Below, in pieces: positions 6,331 to 13,213 of a DNA stretch of 64,000 nucleotides. This DNA is from Elusimicrobiota bacterium (GTDB lineage: Bacteria > Elusimicrobiota > Elusimicrobia > Elusimicrobiales > UBA9959). Within the stretch, counting starts at the first letter, position 1. Every line of letters starts with the position of its first letter. The stretch lies in NCBI GenBank assembly GCA_029267355.1, contig JAJUJA010000002.1, positions 1,386 to 65,385 of the forward strand, given 5' to 3'. Made by a program: the position numbers and the translations under genes. The notes beneath the pieces were generated by a model that saw only the letters and a program-made list of their open reading frames with translations, was not told the origin of the DNA and did no database searches.

Positions 6331-6852
6331 GTGAACAAAAAAACGAATTTCGCCGCCATAGACTTTGAAACCGCCAACTATGAGCCGACATCTGCATGCG
6401 CCGTAGGCATAACGGTGGTCAAAAACGGAAAAATATCCGGCTCCTTCTGCTCTCTTATAAAACCGGAACCGTTTTATTTTGTGCCGGAATTCATAGAGAT
6501 ACACGGCATAAGGCCGGAGCATACCGCTTATGCGCCGGATTTTGAAGAGGTTTGGCCGGAGATGAAAAAGAGAATAGAAGGGCTCCCGCTTTTTGCACAT
6601 AATGCGCCTTTTGACAAAAAGGTGCTGCTTTCATGCCTGCGTTTTTACGGTATAGATTTTGAAGAGCCGGAATTTTTCTGCACCTGCCGTCTTTCAAGGC
6701 AGGCCTGGCCGCATTTTGAAAATCACAAACTTTCAACGGTTTGCCGGATGCTGAATATACCTCTTGACCATCATAAAGCCGACTCTGACGCCAATGCCTG
6801 CGCCCTTATAGCGCTTAAACTGAGAGAAGAATTAGAAAAGATTTTCCAATAA
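6331..6852 (+). CDS. DEDDh-type 3'-5' exonuclease (DnaQ/epsilon-like)
   Basis: Exo I motif AAIDFETAN, Exo II motif AHNAPFDKKVL and Exo III motif HHKADSDANA. Confidence 0.85.
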   Translation: MNKKTNFAAIDFETANYEPTSACAVGITVVKNGKISGSFCSLIKPEPFYFVPEFIEIHGIRPEHTAYAPDFEEVWPEMKKRIEGLPLFAHNAPFDKKVLLSCLRFYGIDFEEPEFFCTCRLSRQAWPHFENHKLSTVCRMLNIPLDHHKADSDANACALIALKLREELEKIFQ

Positions 6853-6857
6853 TTGCC

Positions 6858-7931
6858 TCAGAAATTATCAACTTGCTCACCAGTCAATATTCCGGCTAAT
6901 CTATTCTCTCCCACAGAACCTGGATTAAAGTGGTCGCTTATAAGCTTTTTATTTTCCTTTTCGATATTTTTTTTGGCATTTTCAAATGTTTTTTCAAAGT
7001 GCTCCTCAGAAATATCATTATTTTGTTTTCCTGAATTGTAGATGTATGGAAGGGCTTTCATCATAGCAATAAAACCGGTAGTTTTTGTTAGGATATATTG
7101 ATTCGGGTTATCCCATTCTATTGGCCAAACTTTTTTAGCCGCATTAAACATGTTTAGCAATATTTTGAGAATAATTTCATCTTTATCCTCTCTGAAATAA
7201 TCGTTAAAAATGCATTTTTGTCTCACAGGCAATTTACCCATTTTAGCAATAATATCCCTATCTTCATCTGGATTATCACTAATGTGCACTAAAAGATGTT
7301 TTACAAATGTACCCTGAGATAAACTTTGATTTTCTCCCCCAGTATTTCTTCCAAGCATTTTTAATCTACGATACCACGGAGATCCAGGTGTACTGTTCAT
7401 TGCACGTGCTATTTCATGAGCAGTTTTATATGGGCTTCTGCCTTTAGTTATACCAAAAAGATCGTACACCAGAGAAGCAGGCACCTTTGTCTGTTTACCG
7501 TTTATAATTGCAAATATAAGCGCTTTCTGTTCAACCGTAGGACTTGGGATTAAAACAACAGGAATTTTAAAATCTTTTGCTCTACCGCTTTCCTTTATTC
7601 CCTGTATCCTATGCTGACCATCAACAATTTCTGCAACTACGTTATCCTTAATGTCAATTGAATCAGAAGTATCATCTATATCATATTCACCATCTTTGAG
7701 AGCCAATAAGATCGGTGTTGGAAAAGCGGCGTCGAGAGTTTGTGCATATTCAGATATCTCCTTAATACGCTTGCTCGAAGGTTCACGTTGAATACCTTCA
7801 GAGCTTCTTAATTTGTTATCATCGAATGCTCTGGGTTGAGCCTTCGACATTTCTATTAACACGTCAGCACCCATTACAGTCAAATAAAACTCTCCTGCAG
7901 GCTGCTCGAATTTCATTATTCTAAGTTTCAT
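6858..7931 (-). CDS. DGQHR-domain protein (DndB-like, ParB/Srx-fold)
   Basis: Literal DGQHR motif (AEIVDGQHRIQGI), preceded by the ParB-N-like block GIQREPSSKRIKEISEY. Its start overlaps the upstream stop as ATGA (7928-7931). The gene is AT-rich relative to its neighbours. Confidence 0.8.
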   Translation of the reverse strand: MKLRIMKFEQPAGEFYLTVMGADVLIEMSKAQPRAFDDNKLRSSEGIQREPSSKRIKEISEYAQTLDAAFPTPILLALKDGEYDIDDTSDSIDIKDNVVAEIVDGQHRIQGIKESGRAKDFKIPVVLIPSPTVEQKALIFAIINGKQTKVPASLVYDLFGITKGRSPYKTAHEIARAMNSTPGSPWYRRLKMLGRNTGGENQSLSQGTFVKHLLVHISDNPDEDRDIIAKMGKLPVRQKCIFNDYFREDKDEIILKILLNMFNAAKKVWPIEWDNPNQYILTKTTGFIAMMKALPYIYNSGKQNNDISEEHFEKTFENAKKNIEKENKKLISDHFNPGSVGENRLAGILTGEQVDNF

Positions 7932-8428
7932 ATCTTAACTCCGTTTTCATCGCTTTTTATATTTTTAGCCTTTTTTGATAAATCAGCAATCTCATCATCC
8001 TCTTTCTGAACAATCTTATCTGCAGATTCTTCCCAAGAAGCGTAACGGAAGCAATACAAATATGATGCAAACATAATAACAAGAAGTGTAATCACAAAAA
8101 CCCAAAATATCTGTGCTCCTTCTAAAATAACACCAACATTCAGAATAATCAGAAAAATAGCAATCATAAATCCTATGGTCCTGATTGAGCTACTCTCCTT
8201 TGAAACACCAGACTTTATTGAAGTAGCAGCCGCAAAACATTCAGCCAATAATACTATATTAAAGGAGGCGACATCGGCAATTGCAGACTCCATACTAACA
8301 TTTTTCCAAATGATGGGGAGCCAAATTCCTACGGTTCCCAAAAACATGATCGTAACAAGCCACATTATAAATTCGTGCCGGTGTGACTTAATTTCATTGA
8401 GTGGCTCTAAAAAGCTTTTTGAAACCAT
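7928..8428 (-). CDS. Small integral membrane protein (about 4 TM helices, acidic C-terminal tail), unknown function
   Basis: Four hydrophobic segments (WLVTIMFLGTVGIWLPIIW, SFNIVLLAECFAAATSI, IGFMIAIFLIILNVGVIL, IFWVFVITLLVIMFASYLY). GGAGG SD upstream. Translationally coupled to the DGQHR gene. Confidence 0.6.
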   Translation of the reverse strand: MVSKSFLEPLNEIKSHRHEFIMWLVTIMFLGTVGIWLPIIWKNVSMESAIADVASFNIVLLAECFAAATSIKSGVSKESSSIRTIGFMIAIFLIILNVGVILEGAQIFWVFVITLLVIMFASYLYCFRYASWEESADKIVQKEDDEIADLSKKAKNIKSDENGVKI

Positions 8429-8479
8429 ACTTTATTCCTCCGAAAAAACAGAAAGTTTGTCACACACATATCAGTAAAC

Positions 8480-9412
8480 TTAAACAGGTGCCACTATTCT
8501 CTCTAAAGTCCCCTTTTCAACCATATTCAGGGAAATTAAAAAATCATTGTGCTCAAAAGTTTCACGAAGCGGCTTCTGAGTTTTAACCCAACCCAAGCCA
8601 TCGGTAATCCACACAAAAGTATAACCGGATCCTCTCAGATGATCTTGCAATGTTTTATATTCACCTGCTGTGGATTTTAATTTGGAACCGCCTCCGCTGT
8701 AAAAATTAGTTTCTACTATGACAAGCGTTTTTTTGTTATTTATAACAAAATCGTATCTGCGTGAAGATTTATCTACAGGAACATCGTATCCAAATTTTTC
8801 TTTAATAAGACTGCTATTTGCTTCCTTTAAATAATTAAATCCATACTTTTTGCATAAACTTGAGACAAAAAATTCAACAATATTCTCCATTGCATGTCCG
8901 GAACGGTTTTTTCTGCCATTACTGTCCAAACCGGCTTCAACTCCTATGACATAATCAACCAAATTTTTTATCTTGTTTTCAGTAAACAATCTGGAAAGTC
9001 CGGTATTTTTAACAAATTTCAAAATTCTTTTTATTTCATCTTGCGACAAACCGCCCCGACCATCAAAATTAAAGTCCTCATAAACAAATTTATTTTTTGA
9101 ATAATCAACAAGAATCCTGTATCTTTTGGAAGATTCCCCGTCACGGACAAGCAAAACCGGTATCGCCGTTATAGTTTCAGGATATTGCCTTACTAAAGAC
9201 TCAAACTCCATGTCAAAATCTTTTTTTCCTATAAGGGAATTAAGCAGGTTCAGATACCTTTCCACATTTCCGGCATTCTCAAATACCTTATCCCAGTTTA
9301 CAAAGTAATTCCATAGCAGTATAGATTCTTTCAGGTTACCGATTAAATACTTAAAAACCTCATCCTTATCTTTACAATTAAGCAATTCCTCATAAAAAGG
9401 CAGATATTTCAC
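8480..9412 (-). CDS. Type II restriction endonuclease, DpnII/MboI family (GATC-type)
   Basis: Blocks recalled from R.DpnII: NLVDYVIGVEAGLDSNGRKNRSGHAMENIVE, RYDFVI...LVIVETNFYSGGGSKLKSTAGEYK and WITDGLGW...LRETF. GTG start immediately after the methyltransferase stop. Confidence 0.88.
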   Translation of the reverse strand: MKYLPFYEELLNCKDKDEVFKYLIGNLKESILLWNYFVNWDKVFENAGNVERYLNLLNSLIGKKDFDMEFESLVRQYPETITAIPVLLVRDGESSKRYRILVDYSKNKFVYEDFNFDGRGGLSQDEIKRILKFVKNTGLSRLFTENKIKNLVDYVIGVEAGLDSNGRKNRSGHAMENIVEFFVSSLCKKYGFNYLKEANSSLIKEKFGYDVPVDKSSRRYDFVINNKKTLVIVETNFYSGGGSKLKSTAGEYKTLQDHLRGSGYTFVWITDGLGWVKTQKPLRETFEHNDFLISLNMVEKGTLERIVAPV

Positions 9413-10357
9413 TTATCCCCCAAAGTGAGAGAGTAGCTGCTCTTCTTTAAATGATATGGATTTTCTAATTCTTTTCACAGCCGTTTCAAGGTAAATTTTA
9501 TCCATCTCTATGCCTATAAATTTCCTGCCCAGGTCCACTGCGGCCACCCCCGTTGTACCTGAACCCAAAAACGGATCAAGTATCAAATCCCCAGGATTAG
9601 AGCTTGCAAGTAAGATCCTTTTAAGCAACTCCAGCGGCTTTTGTGTCGGATGCTTGCCAAATTCTTTTTCAGACGATGAAGGCGGATATATATGCCAGAC
9701 ACTTTTCATCTGCTTACCACCATTCATGCGCCTCATATCCTGATAATTGAATAAATGCCTGCTTTTGGTATTCTTTGCCGCCCAAATCACTGTTTCGCTT
9801 GCGTGAGTAAAATAGCGGCATGAAAGGTTCGGCGGCGGGTTCGGCTTGACCCAAGCAATATCATTTAATATTTTAAAGCCAAGCTGCTGCATCGCAAAAC
9901 CTATGGAATGTATTACATGTGAAGTCCCGCTCACCCATATGGTTCCATTAGGTTTAAGCGCTTTTTGACAAACAGATAGCCAATCTCTATTAAATTGATG
10001 GTTTAATTCCGGCCCATTGCTTCTATCCCATTCTCCTTTGTTTACGCTAACCATTTTACCGGACTGGCAGGAAATTCCTCCATTGGAAAGGAAATAAGGC
10101 GGGTCAGCGAAAATCACATCAACAAAGCCATTAGGATAAACATTAGACATTTTTGCCAGGATATCAATACAATCTCCGTGATACAAAGTGATATTTTTTT
10201 TGGAATCACTAAAAAAAGGCTGGATGCCAGCACCGCAGTAATGACTTACTGAATTTTCAGCAATAGAATGTGCATTTTTGCGAAAATATTTTGAATGCTT
10301 AAGATAAACCTTAGATGTTTTTCTTATTTTTTTTTCAGATTTCAGTTTTGCCTTCAT
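9413..10357 (-). CDS. Beta-class N6-adenine/N4-cytosine DNA methyltransferase (DpnA/M.MboI-B-like)
   Basis: Motif IV FADPPYF precedes motif I ILDPFLGSGTTGVAA. This IV-to-I order defines the beta class. The gene abuts the DpnII-type endonuclease gene. Confidence 0.88.
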   Translation of the reverse strand: MKAKLKSEKKIRKTSKVYLKHSKYFRKNAHSIAENSVSHYCGAGIQPFFSDSKKNITLYHGDCIDILAKMSNVYPNGFVDVIFADPPYFLSNGGISCQSGKMVSVNKGEWDRSNGPELNHQFNRDWLSVCQKALKPNGTIWVSGTSHVIHSIGFAMQQLGFKILNDIAWVKPNPPPNLSCRYFTHASETVIWAAKNTKSRHLFNYQDMRRMNGGKQMKSVWHIYPPSSSEKEFGKHPTQKPLELLKRILLASSNPGDLILDPFLGSGTTGVAAVDLGRKFIGIEMDKIYLETAVKRIRKSISFKEEQLLSHFGG

Positions 10358-10424
10358 AATTGGGACAATTTAGCACCTTATCTACCCTATTATATACATT
10401 TTCAAGAACCGCAGCCATATCCGC

Positions 10425-10433
10425 ATTCTAACA
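10425..10433 (-). promoter_or_regulatory. Extended -10 (TGTTAGAAT) upstream of the methyltransferase/endonuclease block
   Basis: The minus strand reads TGTTAGAAT (10433->10425), about 68 nt upstream of the methyltransferase ATG at 10357. The same 9-mer occurs at 24260->24252 and 47456-47464. Confidence 0.4.
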
Positions 10434-10569
10434 CATATACGCGACAGGGACATGTCGCGGAAAATATAAAGCGGAAAATCAACAGGCAAATTTAACAGCC
10501 ATTTTTAATTCTTTAAATACAGGCAGCATCCGCCTTTATAACAGACAAAAGCCGCAATGAACAAATGCT

Positions 10570-11865
10570 TCAGTTTGATACGCTCTCCCCTTTATAAAAA
10601 CCGTCCTTATCCAATTTCAAACCTATATCCTTTCTGTAATGCTTGCCTTCAAAATTAATTCTTTCCGCCTTTTTATACGCTAAAGCCAAAGCTGCGCTGT
10701 GATTTTCTCCCAAAGCCGACACAGTTAATACCCTGCCGCCGGCAGTATAATATTTCCCGTTTTCAAATTTTGTCCCGGCATGAAAAATATTTATCCCTTC
10801 CTCTTTTTCAAGGCCGCTTATTTCATCGCCTTTTCTCGGATTTTCGGGGTAGCCGCTTGAGGCAAGCACCACGCATGCGCAGGCGCCGCTTTTAACTTCG
10901 GCTTCTTCTTTTTGAAGCTTCCCGCCGCAGGCCGCATCATATAAAAGTCCGGCCAAATCCTCATTCAAAAGAGGCAGTACAGCCTGCGTCTCAGGGTCGC
11001 CGAAACGGCAATTAAATTCCAGAACCTTAGGCCCGTTTTTTGTTATCATAAGGCCGGCGTATATTACGCCTCTGTAATCTATCTTCTCGGTAACTATGCC
11101 TGTTATAAAGCGCCAGAGAATCTCATTTTTTATTTCATCCAAAAGTTCTTCTTTAAGCTTGACCGGGCATATCGCGCCCATGCCGCCTGTATTGGGCCCT
11201 TTATCCGAGTCCAAAAGTCTTTTATGGTCCATTGACACAGGAAGCATCGTAAAAGTTTTGCCGTCAACCACCGCCATCACCGAGCATTCCCAGCCTTCTA
11301 AAAATTCCTCTATCACTATCTTGGAGCCCGAGCAGCCGAAAATCCTTTTCTCCATAAAATCCTGCGCCGCCGCAATAGCTTCATTTTCATTGAAACATAT
11401 CCTCACTCCCTTACCGGCCGCCAGGCCGTCCGCCTTAACGACAATAGGATATTTGTTCCTTTCCTTTATGTATTCCTTCGCATAAGAAAAATCGTAAATT
11501 ATCTTAAAATCGGCGGTAGGTATATAATGCCTGTTCATAAACTCCTTGGCCACCTGTTTTGAAGACTCTAAAACGGCGCCCCTGAGTTTAGGGCCGAAAA
11601 CCTTTATCCCCTTTTTCTCCAAAAAATCAGATATGCCCTTGCATAAAGGCTCTTCGGGACCGGCCACAACCAGATCTATTTTTTCATCAAGACAAAAAGC
11701 CGCTATTTTTTCAAAATCCAAAGCGGCTATATCCCGGCTGTCGGCTATTTCTGAAATCGCTTTTGAGTAAGGCAGCTGGAAAAGTTTTGCGGTTTGAGGG
11801 CTTTCTTTCAATTTCGCGCACAAGGCATGCTCCCTGGCGCCCGCGCCTATAACAAGTATATTCAT
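10570..11865 (-). CDS. purD: Phosphoribosylamine--glycine ligase
   Basis: Starts MNILVIGAGAREHAL with an ATP-grasp body. I prefer the ATG at 11865 (GGAGG SD at about 11872) over the track start at 11976, which would overlap purF by about 100 nt. Confidence 0.93.
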   Translation of the reverse strand: MNILVIGAGAREHALCAKLKESPQTAKLFQLPYSKAISEIADSRDIAALDFEKIAAFCLDEKIDLVVAGPEEPLCKGISDFLEKKGIKVFGPKLRGAVLESSKQVAKEFMNRHYIPTADFKIIYDFSYAKEYIKERNKYPIVVKADGLAAGKGVRICFNENEAIAAAQDFMEKRIFGCSGSKIVIEEFLEGWECSVMAVVDGKTFTMLPVSMDHKRLLDSDKGPNTGGMGAICPVKLKEELLDEIKNEILWRFITGIVTEKIDYRGVIYAGLMITKNGPKVLEFNCRFGDPETQAVLPLLNEDLAGLLYDAACGGKLQKEEAEVKSGACACVVLASSGYPENPRKGDEISGLEKEEGINIFHAGTKFENGKYYTAGGRVLTVSALGENHSAALALAYKKAERINFEGKHYRKDIGLKLDKDGFYKGESVSN

Positions 11866-11875
11866 AAAACCTCCG

Positions 11876-13213
11876 TTACACCGGGTAGGAACCGTCAAAA
11901 CAGGCGCTGCAAAAACCCCTGTCGCCCCGGCCGCAGGCTTTGATGAGATTTTCAAGCGACAGATAATGCAGTTCATCAGCGCCGATAAATTTTCTTATTC
12001 TTTCAATTTCCTTGAGACGAAACGCTATGAGCTCTTTTTGCGTAGGAGTGTCTATGCCGTAAAAACAGGGAGCAATTATCGGCGGGGAGGCTATGGCCAT
12101 TATGATCTTTTTCGCGCCGGCTTTTCTTAAACTGCCTATGATTTTAGATGAGGTTGTGCCTCTCACCAGAGAATCGTCTATAAGCACTATTTTCCTGCCG
12201 TAAATGGCGTCTTTTATCGGCGCCAGCTTAAGATGCGCCGTAAATTCCCGCATTTTCTGATCCGGCTGTATGAAAGACCTTCCGGCATAATGATTTCTCA
12301 TAAAAACGGGAACATAGGGAATGCCGGAAGCTTTTGAAAAGCCAAGGGCATAAGATGTTCCCGAATCAGGCACGCCGGAGACTATATCAGCCTTCAATGA
12401 CTTCAGCTCCCTGAAAAGGTGCTGGCCTATCAAATATCTGGCATTCTGAACAGTCTGTCCGCATATAATTGAATCAGGTCTGGCAAAATATACCTGCTCA
12501 AAGATGCAGCGGCTTTTCCTTTCGGGCGCGGCAAATCTGAAAAAAGATATCCTGCCGCCTCTTACCACGGCCGCCTCGCCCGGCTCTATTTCCCTTATGA
12601 TATCCGCGCCTATGACGCTGGCCGCGCAGGTCTCTGAGGCAAAAATAAAGGCCTTGCCTTTTTTTGCCAGTATAAGAGGCCTGAAGCCGTAAGGGTCTCT
12701 GGCGGCAAGCAGGGCGTCTTTATGCAAAAAAAGAAAAGAGTAGGCGCCTTTCAATTTCGGCAGCTGATCAGCGGCCGCCGAAACGAAATCTTTTTGGGAA
12801 CTTCTGCTTATAAGATGTATGATGATTTCGCTGTCGGTGTCGGACTGAAAAATGGCGCCTGAATTAACCAGCTCGGACTTTATCTCAGCCGCATTCACTA
12901 TGTTTCCGTTATGAGCAGCTGCCGCTTCGCCGTATTTACATTTGAAATATATGGGCTGCGAATTGTTTACCGTGCTGGAGCCGGCAGTGGAATATCTCAC
13001 ATGACCTATGGCCGTATCTCCCTCAAGCGACGACAGTATGGACGGATTAAAGACTTCATTTACCAGCCCCATGCCGTTATAGTATGAGAGACGTCCTTTA
13101 TTCAGGGAGGCGATTCCGGCGGATTCCTGGCCCCTGTGCTGCAAAGTAAAAAGCGCTATGTATGAAAGTTTCGCGCTCTCCTTATCGCCGGATATTCCAA
13201 AAATGCCGCACAT
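11876..13213 (-). CDS. purF: Amidophosphoribosyltransferase
   Basis: N-terminal MCGIFGI nucleophile and the PRPP-binding loop LIDDSLVRGTT. GGAGG SD upstream. Confidence 0.95.
   Translation of the reverse strand: MCGIFGISGDKESAKLSYIALFTLQHRGQESAGIASLNKGRLSYYNGMGLVNEVFNPSILSSLEGDTAIGHVRYSTAGSSTVNNSQPIYFKCKYGEAAAAHNGNIVNAAEIKSELVNSGAIFQSDTDSEIIIHLISRSSQKDFVSAAADQLPKLKGAYSFLFLHKDALLAARDPYGFRPLILAKKGKAFIFASETCAASVIGADIIREIEPGEAAVVRGGRISFFRFAAPERKSRCIFEQVYFARPDSIICGQTVQNARYLIGQHLFRELKSLKADIVSGVPDSGTSYALGFSKASGIPYVPVFMRNHYAGRSFIQPDQKMREFTAHLKLAPIKDAIYGRKIVLIDDSLVRGTTSSKIIGSLRKAGAKKIIMAIASPPIIAPCFYGIDTPTQKELIAFRLKEIERIRKFIGADELHYLSLENLIKACGRGDRGFCSACFDGSYPV

Follow-up and report, generated by a model that had tools for sequence, protein, structure and literature searches.

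At the locus described here four minus-strand genes form an operon: a DNA methyltransferase (MTase) gene, a restriction endonuclease (REase) gene and, behind them, a pair of genes encoding a small transmembrane (TM) protein and a DGQHR protein. All four lie in a low-GC island within the window, that is, the whole 64-kb stretch of DNA that was analysed. The features are as follows:

6331-6852, plus strand: RNase T/DnaQ-like exonuclease gene (PF00929), convergent with the operon; its stop marks one edge of the island.
6853..10440, no strand: low-GC island containing all four genes (36.6% GC).
6858..7931, minus strand: 357-aa DGQHR protein (TIGR03187, 1.8e-48; AF2 model with pLDDT 89.9).
7928..7931, minus strand: ATGA stop/start overlap between the TM and DGQHR genes, read directly from the sequence.
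7928..8428, minus strand: 166-aa membrane partner with four predicted TM helices (hydropathy, positive-inside rule, AF2 model).
8429..8479, minus strand: 51-nt spacer from the REase gene to the TM gene, with a GGAGG Shine-Dalgarno sequence 8 nt before the TM ATG and no terminator.
8480..9412, minus strand: DpnII-family type II REase with a GTG start (PF04556, 4.2e-92, profile positions 2-277 of 278; PADLOC REase_II, 1.6e-88).
9413..10357, minus strand: operon gene 1, a beta-class N6/N4 DNA methyltransferase, DpnA/CcrM-like (PF01555, 8.4e-60; PADLOC MTase_II, 2.7e-97; DPPY motif in the translation).
10440-10459: terminator-like hairpin of purD, marking the other edge of the island.

The four open reading frames stand exactly where an earlier note on this DNA had placed them, and their junctions, too, are as it described. 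The MTase stop codon abuts the GTG start of the REase gene. The spacer that follows carries its GGAGG and no hairpin: the minimum free energy is -6.2 kcal/mol against -11.05 for shuffled versions (z=+1.95), meaning that it folds worse than they do. No terminator-like site was found in the spacer, and read-through from the restriction-modification (R-M) genes into the pair is therefore expected. The stop codon of the TM gene and the start codon of the DGQHR gene do share an ATGA, indicating, so far as sequence can, translational coupling of the two genes.

The AT-rich character ascribed to the block is real. At 36.6% GC the island is the lowest of all 3.6-kb stretches in the window (mean 43.8%, sd 2.1%); the 52-55% claimed for the pur genes was an overestimate, the flanks standing at ~44-45% with local maxima near 50%. 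Repeats at its edges, direct or inverted, do not exceed chance level.

A DpnII-family REase adjoining an adenine MTase constitutes a DpnII-type GATC R-M system. Family membership suggests GATC specificity for the REase, and the MTase is presumed to share it because of its REase partner. The suggestion that a C-protein gene is missing holds, in that no C-protein-sized open reading frame lies upstream of the MTase gene. So, within the window, does the claim that no dnd genes accompany the pair: tblastn of DndB, DndC, DndD, DndE, DptG and DptH gave no match at E<=1e-3, and tblastn and HMM searches found no second DGQHR gene. As a property of the family at large that claim fails, as shown below. 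The pair was probably acquired together with the GATC R-M operon.

Membership of the 357-aa protein in the DGQHR superfamily is clear from both score and motifs. It reaches 165.7 bits against TIGR03187, above the curated threshold (cutoff 58.85), and its N-terminal part matches PF14072 at 49.8 bits (cutoff 29.1); Q48-R49, D104-G-Q-H-R108 and F140-x3-N144 are invariant in an alignment of 116 sequences. The QR, DGQ(Q/H)R and FxxxN motifs are shared with GmrS/DUF262 (PMC4619093), and DndB-like proteins bind ATP and GTP (bioRxiv 10.1101/2025.10.10.680097); on its motifs the window protein is predicted to bind NTP as well. By fold and motifs the NTPase domain, of ParB/Srx type, spans residues 1-160. 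Foldseek with the AF2 model returned ParB, KorB and Noc (probability >=0.99, E 1.5e-3 to 1e-2, TM-scores 0.2-0.43), followed by weaker matches to SspE and BrxU, and a search of PDB sequences with the DGQHR profile yielded chance matches to PsaD alone.

Residues 165-357 make up a helical C-terminal domain with an invariant H172-E173-x2-R176-x2-N179 and no solved counterpart. An HEPN RNase fold has been proposed for the C-terminus of DndB (PMC3632139), and the HEPN motif sought, Rx4-6H in a four-helix domain, has a possible equivalent in the R165-x6-H172 that is conserved in the DGQHR family; no HEPN family was matched in Pfam at E<=0.1 and no HEPN structure appeared among the Foldseek matches.

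The four-TM topology given for the 166-aa protein is backed by hydropathy, which places helices at ~24-40, 53-69, 85-101 and 105-121, and by an AF2 model consisting of four long helices (pLDDT 72). The positive-inside rule predicts both termini to be cytoplasmic, and TM4 runs on into an acidic cytoplasmic tail of ~40 aa (about residues 125-166) with a terminal D-x-x-G-x-x-L. The protein matched no family in Pfam, NCBIfam, PADLOC or PHROG, and Foldseek with its model found no structural neighbour, nothing having E<0.9. Neither it nor the DGQHR protein showed a nuclease, pore-forming or other effector signature in profile and fold searches.

A central question is whether these two genes belong together. 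Evidence that they do came from 80 loci with a DGQHR homologue, sampled across more than 10 phyla, in which upstream open reading frames were called afresh. In 79 of the 80 a same-strand polytopic open reading frame of ~170-230 aa precedes the DGQHR gene; 70 of these 79 partners overlap its start, 56 by 4 nt. A single family, built by iterated HMM search, unites 76 of the 79 partners, the window's 166-aa protein among them, and phmmer with the window protein against the open reading frames upstream of DGQHR homologues gave matches down to E=2e-37. Four TM helices are predicted in 62 of the 76 family members, with the N-terminus, the loop between helices 2 and 3 and an acidic tail of ~43 aa all predicted to be cytoplasmic. 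The two proteins have, moreover, diverged together: their distance matrices correlate at r=0.82 (Mantel p=0.001). Recurring in ~80 loci, the arrangement exceeds chance by far, related loci among the 80 being not all phylogenetically independent. Homologues of the two genes thus co-occur almost without exception across phyla, as a two-gene module would require.

The pair is widespread. Its family numbers 469 clusters (50% identity, E<=1e-30) out of 1.84 billion representatives, and the pair is found in Bacteroidota, Bacillota (oral streptococci and Carnobacterium included), Spirochaetota, Pseudomonadota, Verrucomicrobiota, Acidobacteriota, Chloroflexota and others. Most copies are chromosomal, and some lie on mobilizable and conjugative plasmids, where annotated copies show the same layout with the upstream gene labelled 'hypothetical protein'. 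The TM family becomes visible only after open reading frames are called upstream of DGQHR homologues; at least one public gene call overlooked the open reading frame, and word-index protein searches with the TM protein returned either itself alone or 33 distant alphaproteobacterial members. As a system the pair is in neither PADLOC 2.0, Pfam nor NCBIfam, nor does it match PHROGs or a description in the literature searched, in agreement with the earlier note, which did not recognise it as a named system. We conclude that the window genes at 7928-8428 and 6858-7931 represent a conserved, mobile and unnamed two-gene cassette, of which other copies are located on chromosomal islands and plasmids.

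Labelled restriction or modification genes occur near the pair in 38 of the 80 loci, a count that, like the other context counts, rests on crude open-reading-frame calling and often truncated contigs. A Dam or N6_N4 MTase lies within ~6 kb in 25 of the 80 loci, GATC-type genes are nearby in 21, and in 16 loci a restriction or modification gene is co-directional with the pair and within operon distance of it. The types are diverse: Dam/N6_N4 MTases, DpnII, DpnI, DptGH-DndBCDE (also DptFGH-DndBCDE) and PLD-helicases, together with BglII/BstYI systems beside plasmid copies. Other neighbours match PADLOC models (MTases, PD-Lambda-5, MADS, Pbe, PDC-S05) or are integrases and transposases. Our data thus show association with unrelated types of restriction and modification system, often in the same operon, and place homologous pairs in defence-type neighbourhoods. 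Adjacency may nonetheless reflect nothing more than defence islands, since no defence genes are commoner than those of R-M systems. Clustering of 647 flanking proteins revealed no universal third partner gene, the largest cluster being Dam MTases (17 of the 80 loci). Roughly half of the loci, a large Bacteroidota clade among them, have no recognisable restriction or modification neighbour, and dependence on a neighbouring system is consequently not general.

These distributions bear directly on the suggestion that the pair controls the R-M genes. The DGQHR protein would then be a DndB-like transcriptional regulator of neighbouring genes, sequestered or released by its membrane partner upon an envelope signal, and would here take the place of a C protein. 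DndB, the best-studied DGQHR protein, does repress the dnd operon, under modulation by ATP (PMC4507180); the window lacks a C-protein gene; in the 16 loci just mentioned R-M or Dnd genes lie close enough to share an operon with the pair; and Foldseek aligns a portion of the protein past the N-domain to ParB, KorB and Noc chains, in which a DNA-binding domain is included. Yet around half of the loci offer no R-M neighbour to control, and where neighbours exist they are mechanistically unrelated, as are their promoters. C proteins, moreover, are small HTH proteins whose genes precede or overlap that of the REase, whereas the pair stands downstream of it at the 3' end of the operon and neither protein has an HTH_3-type match in Pfam. 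The plasmid pTR3_1 carries a classical HTH controller between its REase and MTase genes and has the pair besides. The window protein, finally, scores 14.4 bits against the DndB equivalog model (TIGR03233, cutoff 328). We consider the controller explanation, which the earlier note had offered as its alternative, quite improbable.

A second alternative sees the pair as an aid to modification, with the DGQHR NTPase loading or tuning an adjacent MTase or the Dnd machinery on DNA, in the manner of DndB or of DpdB, an ATPase required for inserting 7-deazaguanine, and the membrane protein localising it. In keeping with this, the labelled MTases near the pair are in almost every case amino-methyltransferases (D12, beta-class N6_N4, MT-A70), the window protein is weakly similar to DpdB over its full length (62-64 bits), and the gene of a related family, TIGR04172, lies beside dndCD and overlaps a class I SAM methyltransferase gene directly downstream. 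No single modification enzyme accompanies the pair throughout, however, and it also adjoins the methylation-dependent nuclease DpnI and PLD-helicase nucleases with no MTase nearby. Dam and DpnA-type MTases function alone, and a membrane anchor has no obvious use in genome-wide modification. We regard a role of this kind as very improbable.

The association with plasmids raises a third alternative, namely that the pair serves the mobile element: as a ParB/Noc-like tether of DNA to the membrane, in addiction, or in entry exclusion, the R-M genes being co-travelling selfish cargo. Its presence on mobilizable and conjugative plasmids and in a low-GC island, and the integrases, transposases and toxins of toxin-antitoxin (TA) systems that adjoin it, are what would be expected, and among solved folds ParB, KorB and Noc come nearest, Noc being a protein that tethers DNA to the membrane. 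Against this, copies are mostly chromosomal, and matches (E<=1e-10) occur in only 14 of 72,556 plasmid records. In IMG/VR a relative is present on just 5 of 2.9 million viral contigs, and INPHARED phage records gave 2 weak matches; carriage by phage is so rare that a phage-borne function is unlikely. The recurrent neighbours include nothing that resembles ParA, and although the N-domain shares the fold of the ParB, Noc and KorB clamps, their GERRxRA CTP-binding box is replaced by DGQHR, the motifs fitting the GmrSD/SspE branch and not partition proteins. A function of this sort, too, we hold to be a long shot.

Several known systems are close to the cassette. One is TIGR04172, 'DNA phosphorothioation-associated DGQHR protein 1', a hypothetical equivalog in NCBIfam whose function is likewise hypothetical. 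Residues 6-341 of the window protein align to positions 4-368 of the 381 in this model, but at 159.1 bits it falls well short of the cutoff of 450, as does the copy from a Dnd-linked locus (L026, 156 bits), and it thus belongs to a sister family. The member of TIGR04172 on pRphaN831b has a 176-aa polytopic 'hypothetical protein' encoded upstream with a 4-nt overlap, although this partner escapes the HMM of the window's TM family. TIGR04172 adjoins dndCD, whereas most members of the window's family are not beside dnd genes.

With DndB and DpdB the window protein shares the DGQHR domain and the N-terminal PF14072 match. It differs in that the dndCDE genes with which DndB is encoded are absent, in its 61.9 bits against the DpdB model (NF041060, cutoff 300), and in that neither DndB nor DpdB has a TM partner; nor does the operon contain the dpdA/tgt-like and dpdC genes that accompany DpdB, since it holds just the MTase, the REase and the pair between the exonuclease gene and purD. 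In three loci from Alteromonadales (L019, L026, L060) the pair is lodged between dptH and dndE. Two of these (L019 and L060) possess a genuine dndB gene as well – in L060 its product scores 525 bits against TIGR03233 – from which it follows that DndB and the DGQHR protein of the pair are not interchangeable.

In Salmonella the dptH-dndE slot is occupied by DndI, a DUF262-HNH PT-sensing NTPase/nickase (PMC11662687). Could the window protein be the DndI of DndFGHI? The latter is encoded by a 1,971-bp DUF262-HNH gene with a DGQQR motif, making it an analogue in the same slot and not a whole-protein homologue. The resemblance to DndI, SspE and GmrSD/BrxU is nonetheless instructive. All have the ParB/Srx N-domain with the QR, DGQ(Q/H)R and FxxxN motifs, so that the window protein is DUF262-like at its N-terminus, and all, like the pair, are tied to immunity based on DNA modification. 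They are, however, DUF262 + DUF1524 HNH fusions, whereas the window protein contains no HNH/DUF1524 domain (Pfam, E<=0.1) and its C-domain is all-helical in the AF2 model. Its motif is DGQHR instead of DGQQR, its length ~357 aa as against ~600-770 aa in those enzymes, and the obligate, separately encoded membrane partner of the window's family has no counterpart in DndI, SspE, GmrSD or BrxU.

Two further systems resemble the cassette in layout. In Kiwa, the gene for a 4-TM KwaA of ~190 aa precedes that for KwaB, a soluble, DNA-acting protein of ~300-350 aa, and the two form a membrane supercomplex that answers phage-induced membrane changes (bioRxiv 10.1101/2023.02.26.530102). The sizes and order are similar, but neither protein of the pair has similarity to KwaA or KwaB (PADLOC, E<=0.1), no KwaA chain is among the fold matches, and KwaB is a DUF4868 protein with no ParB fold. 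It is also well recognised that some R-M systems contain accessory abortive-infection genes (PMC12707154; PMC3632139). PrrC within EcoprrI is an example: there, too, extra genes have been added to an R-M operon, and a challenge to restriction is the proposed trigger for their action. PrrC differs in being an unrelated ABC-ATPase anticodon nuclease bound to one type Ic system, whereas the pair keeps company with many types or stands alone.

The idea that a 4-TM and a DGQHR protein form a two-gene module, put forward as a guess in the earlier note, is strongly supported by co-occurrence across phyla, gene overlap, co-evolution and defence-type neighbourhoods, and in all probability this module is a new one that acts against phage or as an accessory to restriction. 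As to its nature, we favour a coupled and co-inherited cassette that forms a membrane-anchored, NTP-gated DNA sensor with a role in defence or as an accessory to restriction, a reading to which we give a probability of about one half. The two proteins would form a membrane-bound complex, probably by way of the conserved acidic cytoplasmic tail of the partner. The DGQHR domain would serve as an NTP-gated DNA-binding switch, in the manner of the N-domains of SspE, DndI and GmrSD that read modification state, and the HNH nuclease of those proteins would be replaced by the helical C-domain together with the membrane partner. Two kinds of output are conceivable: incoming DNA might be held or processed at the membrane for a neighbouring nuclease, or the sensing of foreign DNA might trigger an abortive response at the level of the membrane. 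A sensor-effector function of the abortive-infection type may be what the pair supplies.

A more specific version, which we think unlikely though worth stating, makes the pair a portable reader of modification with a membrane output: a plug-in second layer by which any system based on modification would gain a membrane-coupled abortive or exclusion defence. The DGQHR NTPase would read the host's mark in the way that its counterpart domain in SspE and DndI does. This mark would be m6A in GATC-core sites where Dam, DpnII or BglII-type genes are neighbours and phosphorothioate where Dnd genes are. Unmarked DNA at the inner membrane, or blocked restriction, would be signalled through the 4-TM protein and lead to cell arrest or a block to entry.

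Should the sensor reading hold, an undescribed defence or restriction-accessory module would be spread across many phyla, and the principle of the ParB-fold 'DNA-modification reader', embodied in GmrSD, SspE and DndI, would extend to a membrane-coupled output; the cassette would also be a concrete example of a second layer gained by type II R-M, Dnd and other systems. Recognition of the pair alters the reading of several hundred DGQHR genes: automated tools show only an orphan 'DGQHR domain-containing protein', since its membrane partner either lacks annotation or is overlooked in gene calling. Tractable carriers exist, among them the 15-kb Acinetobacter plasmid pTR3_1, Rhizobium rhizogenes pRiA4, Streptococcus oralis and S. 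mitis, Carnobacterium maltaromaticum, and isolates of Flavobacterium and Maribacter.

The 166-aa membrane protein and the DGQHR protein are encoded by the last two genes of a four-gene minus-strand operon, on which a plus-strand gene converges:

9413-10357, minus strand: beta-class N6/N4 DNA methyltransferase (PF01555, 8e-60)
8480-9412, minus strand: DpnII-family endonuclease (PF04556, 4e-92, nearly full-length)
7928-8428, minus strand: 166-aa protein with four transmembrane (TM) segments, without family match
6858-7931, minus strand: 357-aa DGQHR-domain protein (TIGR03187, 166 bits against a cutoff of 59)
6331-6852, plus strand: RNase T/DnaQ-like 3'-5' exonuclease, 173 aa (PF00929, 9e-18)

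ORF calls returned all four operon genes exactly where the earlier note had placed them, and its description of the junctions held: the methyltransferase stop abuts the endonuclease start; 51 nt, with GGAGG 8 nt upstream of the ATG, separate the endonuclease from the membrane-protein gene; and the stop of the latter overlaps the DGQHR start as ATGA. The spacer, said to lack a hairpin, contains no terminator-like site and folds more weakly than shuffled controls (z = +1.95). The four TM segments claimed for the 166-aa protein appear in hydropathy and, as four long helices, in an AF2 model. As had also been noted, the restriction-modification system is without a C-protein gene (no ORF of that size lies upstream of the methyltransferase) and dnd partners are absent: there is no dnd or dpt gene within 64 kb, nor was a second DGQHR gene found in the window.

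Our data show the pair to be a mobile cassette of two genes, whose proteins are produced jointly and passed on jointly. Relatives of the DGQHR protein, about 355 aa long and at 50-68% identity, number in the hundreds, and an exhaustive HMMER search of 1.84 billion representatives found 469 clusters (50% identity) at E<=1e-30. A one-genome-per-species scan gave 80 loci, in which ORFs were called anew; these span Bacteroidota, Bacillota, Spirochaetota, Pseudomonadota, Verrucomicrobiota, Acidobacteriota, Omnitrophota, Elusimicrobiota, Chloroflexota, Nitrospirota and Gemmatimonadota. Wherever upstream sequence is available, an ORF on the same strand lies directly 5' of the DGQHR gene, its product mostly 170-230 aa long and usually containing four hydrophobic stretches. 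This ORF runs into the DGQHR start in 70 of 79 loci; the overlap is 4 nt in 56 of these. The upstream proteins are homologous to the 166-aa protein (closest E=2e-37, phmmer), and the co-occurrence across genomes that the earlier note had wished to see checked is evident, with 76 of the 79 grouped into one family by an iterated profile. Pairwise identities of partner and DGQHR protein correlate across these 76 loci (r=0.82, Mantel p=0.001), the partner evolving about twice as fast (mean identity 21% versus 43%). Annotated plasmids repeat the arrangement: the gene for a 'DGQHR domain-containing protein' is abutted or overlapped by one for a 'hypothetical protein' of 174-207 aa. On phages the cassette is rare.

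The partner is effectively unannotated, and systematically so, because its family is nearly absent from a word-indexed protein database and a genuine member escaped gene calling in one metagenome: in the moss-metagenome locus L001 (JGI Ga0209208_10000006) a 159-aa partner ORF at 7525-8004 (E=2e-19 to the window protein) was missed by the public call, which has a 60-aa ORF in another frame. This under-annotation explains near-empty protein-database searches. No family was found for the 166-aa protein in Pfam, NCBIfam, PADLOC or PHROGs, and comparison of its AF2 model (pLDDT 72) found no solved structure resembling it. The family nonetheless has recognisable features: the short N-terminus is basic and bears a conserved P-F/L...W motif; the outer loops of the four TM helices are very short; TM4 ends in Y-x-Y-C; and the tail that follows, about 43 aa long, is net acidic and conserved at its extreme C-terminus. 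The N-terminus, loop 2-3 and tail are predicted to be cytoplasmic (positive-inside rule; 62 of 76 members with four predicted TM helices), and in the model TM4 extends into the cytoplasm as a single long helix.

The DGQHR protein (AF2 model, pLDDT 89.9) begins with a ParB/Srx-type alpha/beta domain (residues 1-160) that Foldseek matches to ParB, KorB and Noc at probabilities >=0.99 and more weakly to SspE and BrxU. Invariant across 116 sequences are Q48-R49, D104-G-Q-H-R108 and F140-x3-N144; QR, DGQHR and FxxxN are the three motifs common to DGQHR domains and the GmrS/DUF262 NTPase domain (PMC4619093). A helical region follows (residues 165-357). It includes the helix H172-E173-x2-R176-x2-N179, invariant in the same sequences, and neither a PDB profile search nor Foldseek found a solved counterpart for it. 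The R165-x6-H172 spacing is compatible with the HEPN Rx4-6H pattern, once suggested for the DndB C-terminus (PMC3632139), but no HEPN family (Pfam) or structure (Foldseek) matched. Pfam detected no HNH or other nuclease domain. One sub-clade (the Bacteroidales loci L027, L032, L041, L053 and L076, with L016) carries an extra conserved domain, about 100 aa long, at the C-terminus, which brings these proteins to about 456-468 aa, and the L077 protein has a different extension of 180 aa; these could be add-on effector or sensor domains.

Although a member of the DGQHR superfamily, the window protein falls outside three named families: it scores 14 bits against the DndB equivalog cutoff of 328, 62 against 300 for DpdB and 159 against 450 for TIGR04172. 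The HNH domain by which GmrSD, SspE and DndI are defined is missing from it. Kiwa, with a 4-TM KwaA and a soluble KwaB, is a close architectural analogue, but PADLOC models reveal no homology to either component and no KwaA is among the structure matches. The earlier note did not recognise the pair as a named system; neither gene is part of a PADLOC-DB 2.0 system model, and the full-text literature searched, outside which many subscription papers lie, holds no description of a DGQHR and membrane-protein pair. We class it among ParB-fold NTPase modules linked to modification-based immunity, where it is notable for its breadth, consistent architecture and clear testability.

Clustering of 647 flanking proteins revealed no universal third gene. 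Among the neighbours that recur, restriction or modification genes form the overwhelming majority:

Recurrent neighbours of the pair among the 80 loci
Dam/D12 methyltransferases: 17 loci
N6_N4 methyltransferases: 15 loci
DpnII endonucleases: 4 loci, plus the window
DpnI: 3 loci
DUF6996/6997/7226 proteins, in place of DpnII in otherwise DpnII-like cassettes: 7 loci
PD-(D/E)xK proteins: 3 loci
DptG-DptH with convergent dndEDCB: 3 loci
PLD-helicase-DUF3427 proteins: 5 loci
Uncharacterised SNF2/ParB-like/rSAM-like/HATPase_c_3 cluster: 6 loci

A Dam or N6_N4 methyltransferase lies within about 6 kb in 25/80 loci, GATC-type genes are nearby in 21/80, and any labelled restriction or modification system in 38/80; in 16 loci a labelled gene is co-directional at operon distance. 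The unlabelled neighbours include further methyltransferases, MT-A70, HNH_2, PD-Lambda-5, MADS, Pbe and PDC-S05 components, as well as integrases, transposases and plain housekeeping genes. Neighbourhood type tracks DGQHR phylogeny only partly: GATC-type neighbours occur in at least four separate clades with differing gene orders, while a large Bacteroidota clade is mostly without recognisable restriction-modification neighbours. The cassette shows strong enrichment next to restriction and DNA-modification systems that are mechanistically unrelated, and it often shares an operon with them. The near-exclusive company of amino-methyltransferases would suit a DpdB-like modification helper; the DpnI and PLD-helicase contexts and the membrane anchor do not fit such a role, which we think quite improbable.

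Plasmids provide further examples. On pRiA4 a BglII/BstYI endonuclease and an MT-A70 methyltransferase lie 2-3 kb from the pair; on pRphaN831b a genuine TIGR04172 member, with the same kind of membrane partner upstream, adjoins dndC and dndD; and the 15-kb mobilizable plasmid pTR3_1 has the order BglII/BstYI endonuclease, HTH controller, adenine methyltransferase, partner, DGQHR. That the DGQHR protein is a DndB-like regulator of neighbouring genes appears unlikely, because in half of the loci such a regulator would lack a target, the neighbouring systems are unrelated to one another, the pair occupies the 3' end of operons and pTR3_1 already has its own C-protein. Plasmid copies and the ParB/Noc fold would also accord with mobile-element maintenance or DNA tethering, to which we likewise assign a low probability: the distribution is mostly chromosomal and the recurrent neighbours include no ParA-like gene.

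For function, the ParB-superfamily branch with matching motifs is the best guide. In SspE and DndI a homologous domain reads DNA phosphorothioate and thereby governs both an NTPase cycle and a fused HNH nickase (PMC11662687). GmrSD and BrxU recognise modified bases (PMC4619093), and binding of ATP and GTP was recently demonstrated for a DndB-like protein (bioRxiv 10.1101/2025.10.10.680097). Moreover, in the Alteromonadales loci L019, L026 and L060 the pair lies between dptH and dndE, where Salmonella carries dndI (PMC11662687). These parallels lead us to infer, at a probability of about one half, a membrane-bound, NTP-gated DNA-sensing pair with the sensor logic of SspE, DndI and GmrSD and a different output. 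Partner and DGQHR protein would form a membrane-bound complex in which the DGQHR domain is the NTP-gated DNA-binding switch, and the fused HNH nuclease would be replaced by the protein's own helical domain and the membrane partner. Entering DNA might be retained or processed at the membrane for a neighbouring nuclease, or the output might be an abortive response at membrane level; restriction-modification operons carrying accessory abortive genes such as prrC are of an accepted kind (PMC12707154). The specific version in which the pair reads host DNA modification is doubtful. What probability remains belongs to something not yet considered.

Several neighbours deserve mention in their own right. 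The DUF6996+DUF6997+DUF7226 proteins (about 426 aa; L043, L045, L056, L061, L063, L069 and L070, e.g. L056:5336-6616) occupy the DpnII position of DpnII cassettes, always with a Dam/D12 methyltransferase adjacent and often a second, N6_N4 methyltransferase; they probably represent a family of GATC-type restriction endonucleases that lacks annotation. The cluster directly upstream of the pair in six loci (L066:1355-7400, L068:2760-7355, L022:3830-7400, also L030, L057 and L071), which overlaps it in two, encodes four proteins: an SNF2 helicase (~496 aa), one that is ParB-like (~335 aa), one of ~680 aa with only a weak B12/radical-SAM-like match and a HATPase_c_3 protein (~500 aa). It has the look of a defence or modification system not yet described. 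A second, long DGQHR protein (~763 aa) adjoins the pair in two distant loci (L030:5112-7403; L079, a 760-aa gene at position +3), with its DGQHR domain at 233-536 and a possible PD-(D/E)xK-like motif in the N-terminal region. HNH_2 neighbours occur in three loci; in L001 (59% identity) a 390-aa HNH_2 endonuclease gene (9056-10234) follows the DGQHR gene with a 4-nt overlap, opposite an MT-A70 methyltransferase gene, a layout resembling the DUF262-HNH arrangement split in two.

The AT-richness noted for the operon is real: at 36.6% GC, 6853-10440 is the minimum among 3.6-kb stretches of the window (mean 43.8%, sd 2.1%). The 52-55% quoted for the pur genes was too high, the flanks being at about 44-45%. 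A search for insertion-like repeats around this island found none; its borders are the stop of the convergent exonuclease gene and the purD terminator hairpin. The exonuclease and DGQHR stops are 5 nt apart and no terminator intervenes, so the two transcripts would collide or overlap at their 3' ends. GATC is strongly avoided: its sites number 89 in the whole window (1-64000) against 220.7 +/- 12.7 in dinucleotide-preserving shuffles (0/100 as low), and the island, at 2.2 sites per kb versus about 1.3 elsewhere, is less depleted. This pattern fits a lineage long exposed to GATC restriction, with the island having arrived more recently. Finally, the true purD start is probably an internal ATG, since the longest ORF (10570-11976, minus strand) overlaps the end of purF (11876-13213, minus strand) by about 100 nt and has a non-conserved-looking 37-residue leader ahead of 'MNILVIGAG'.
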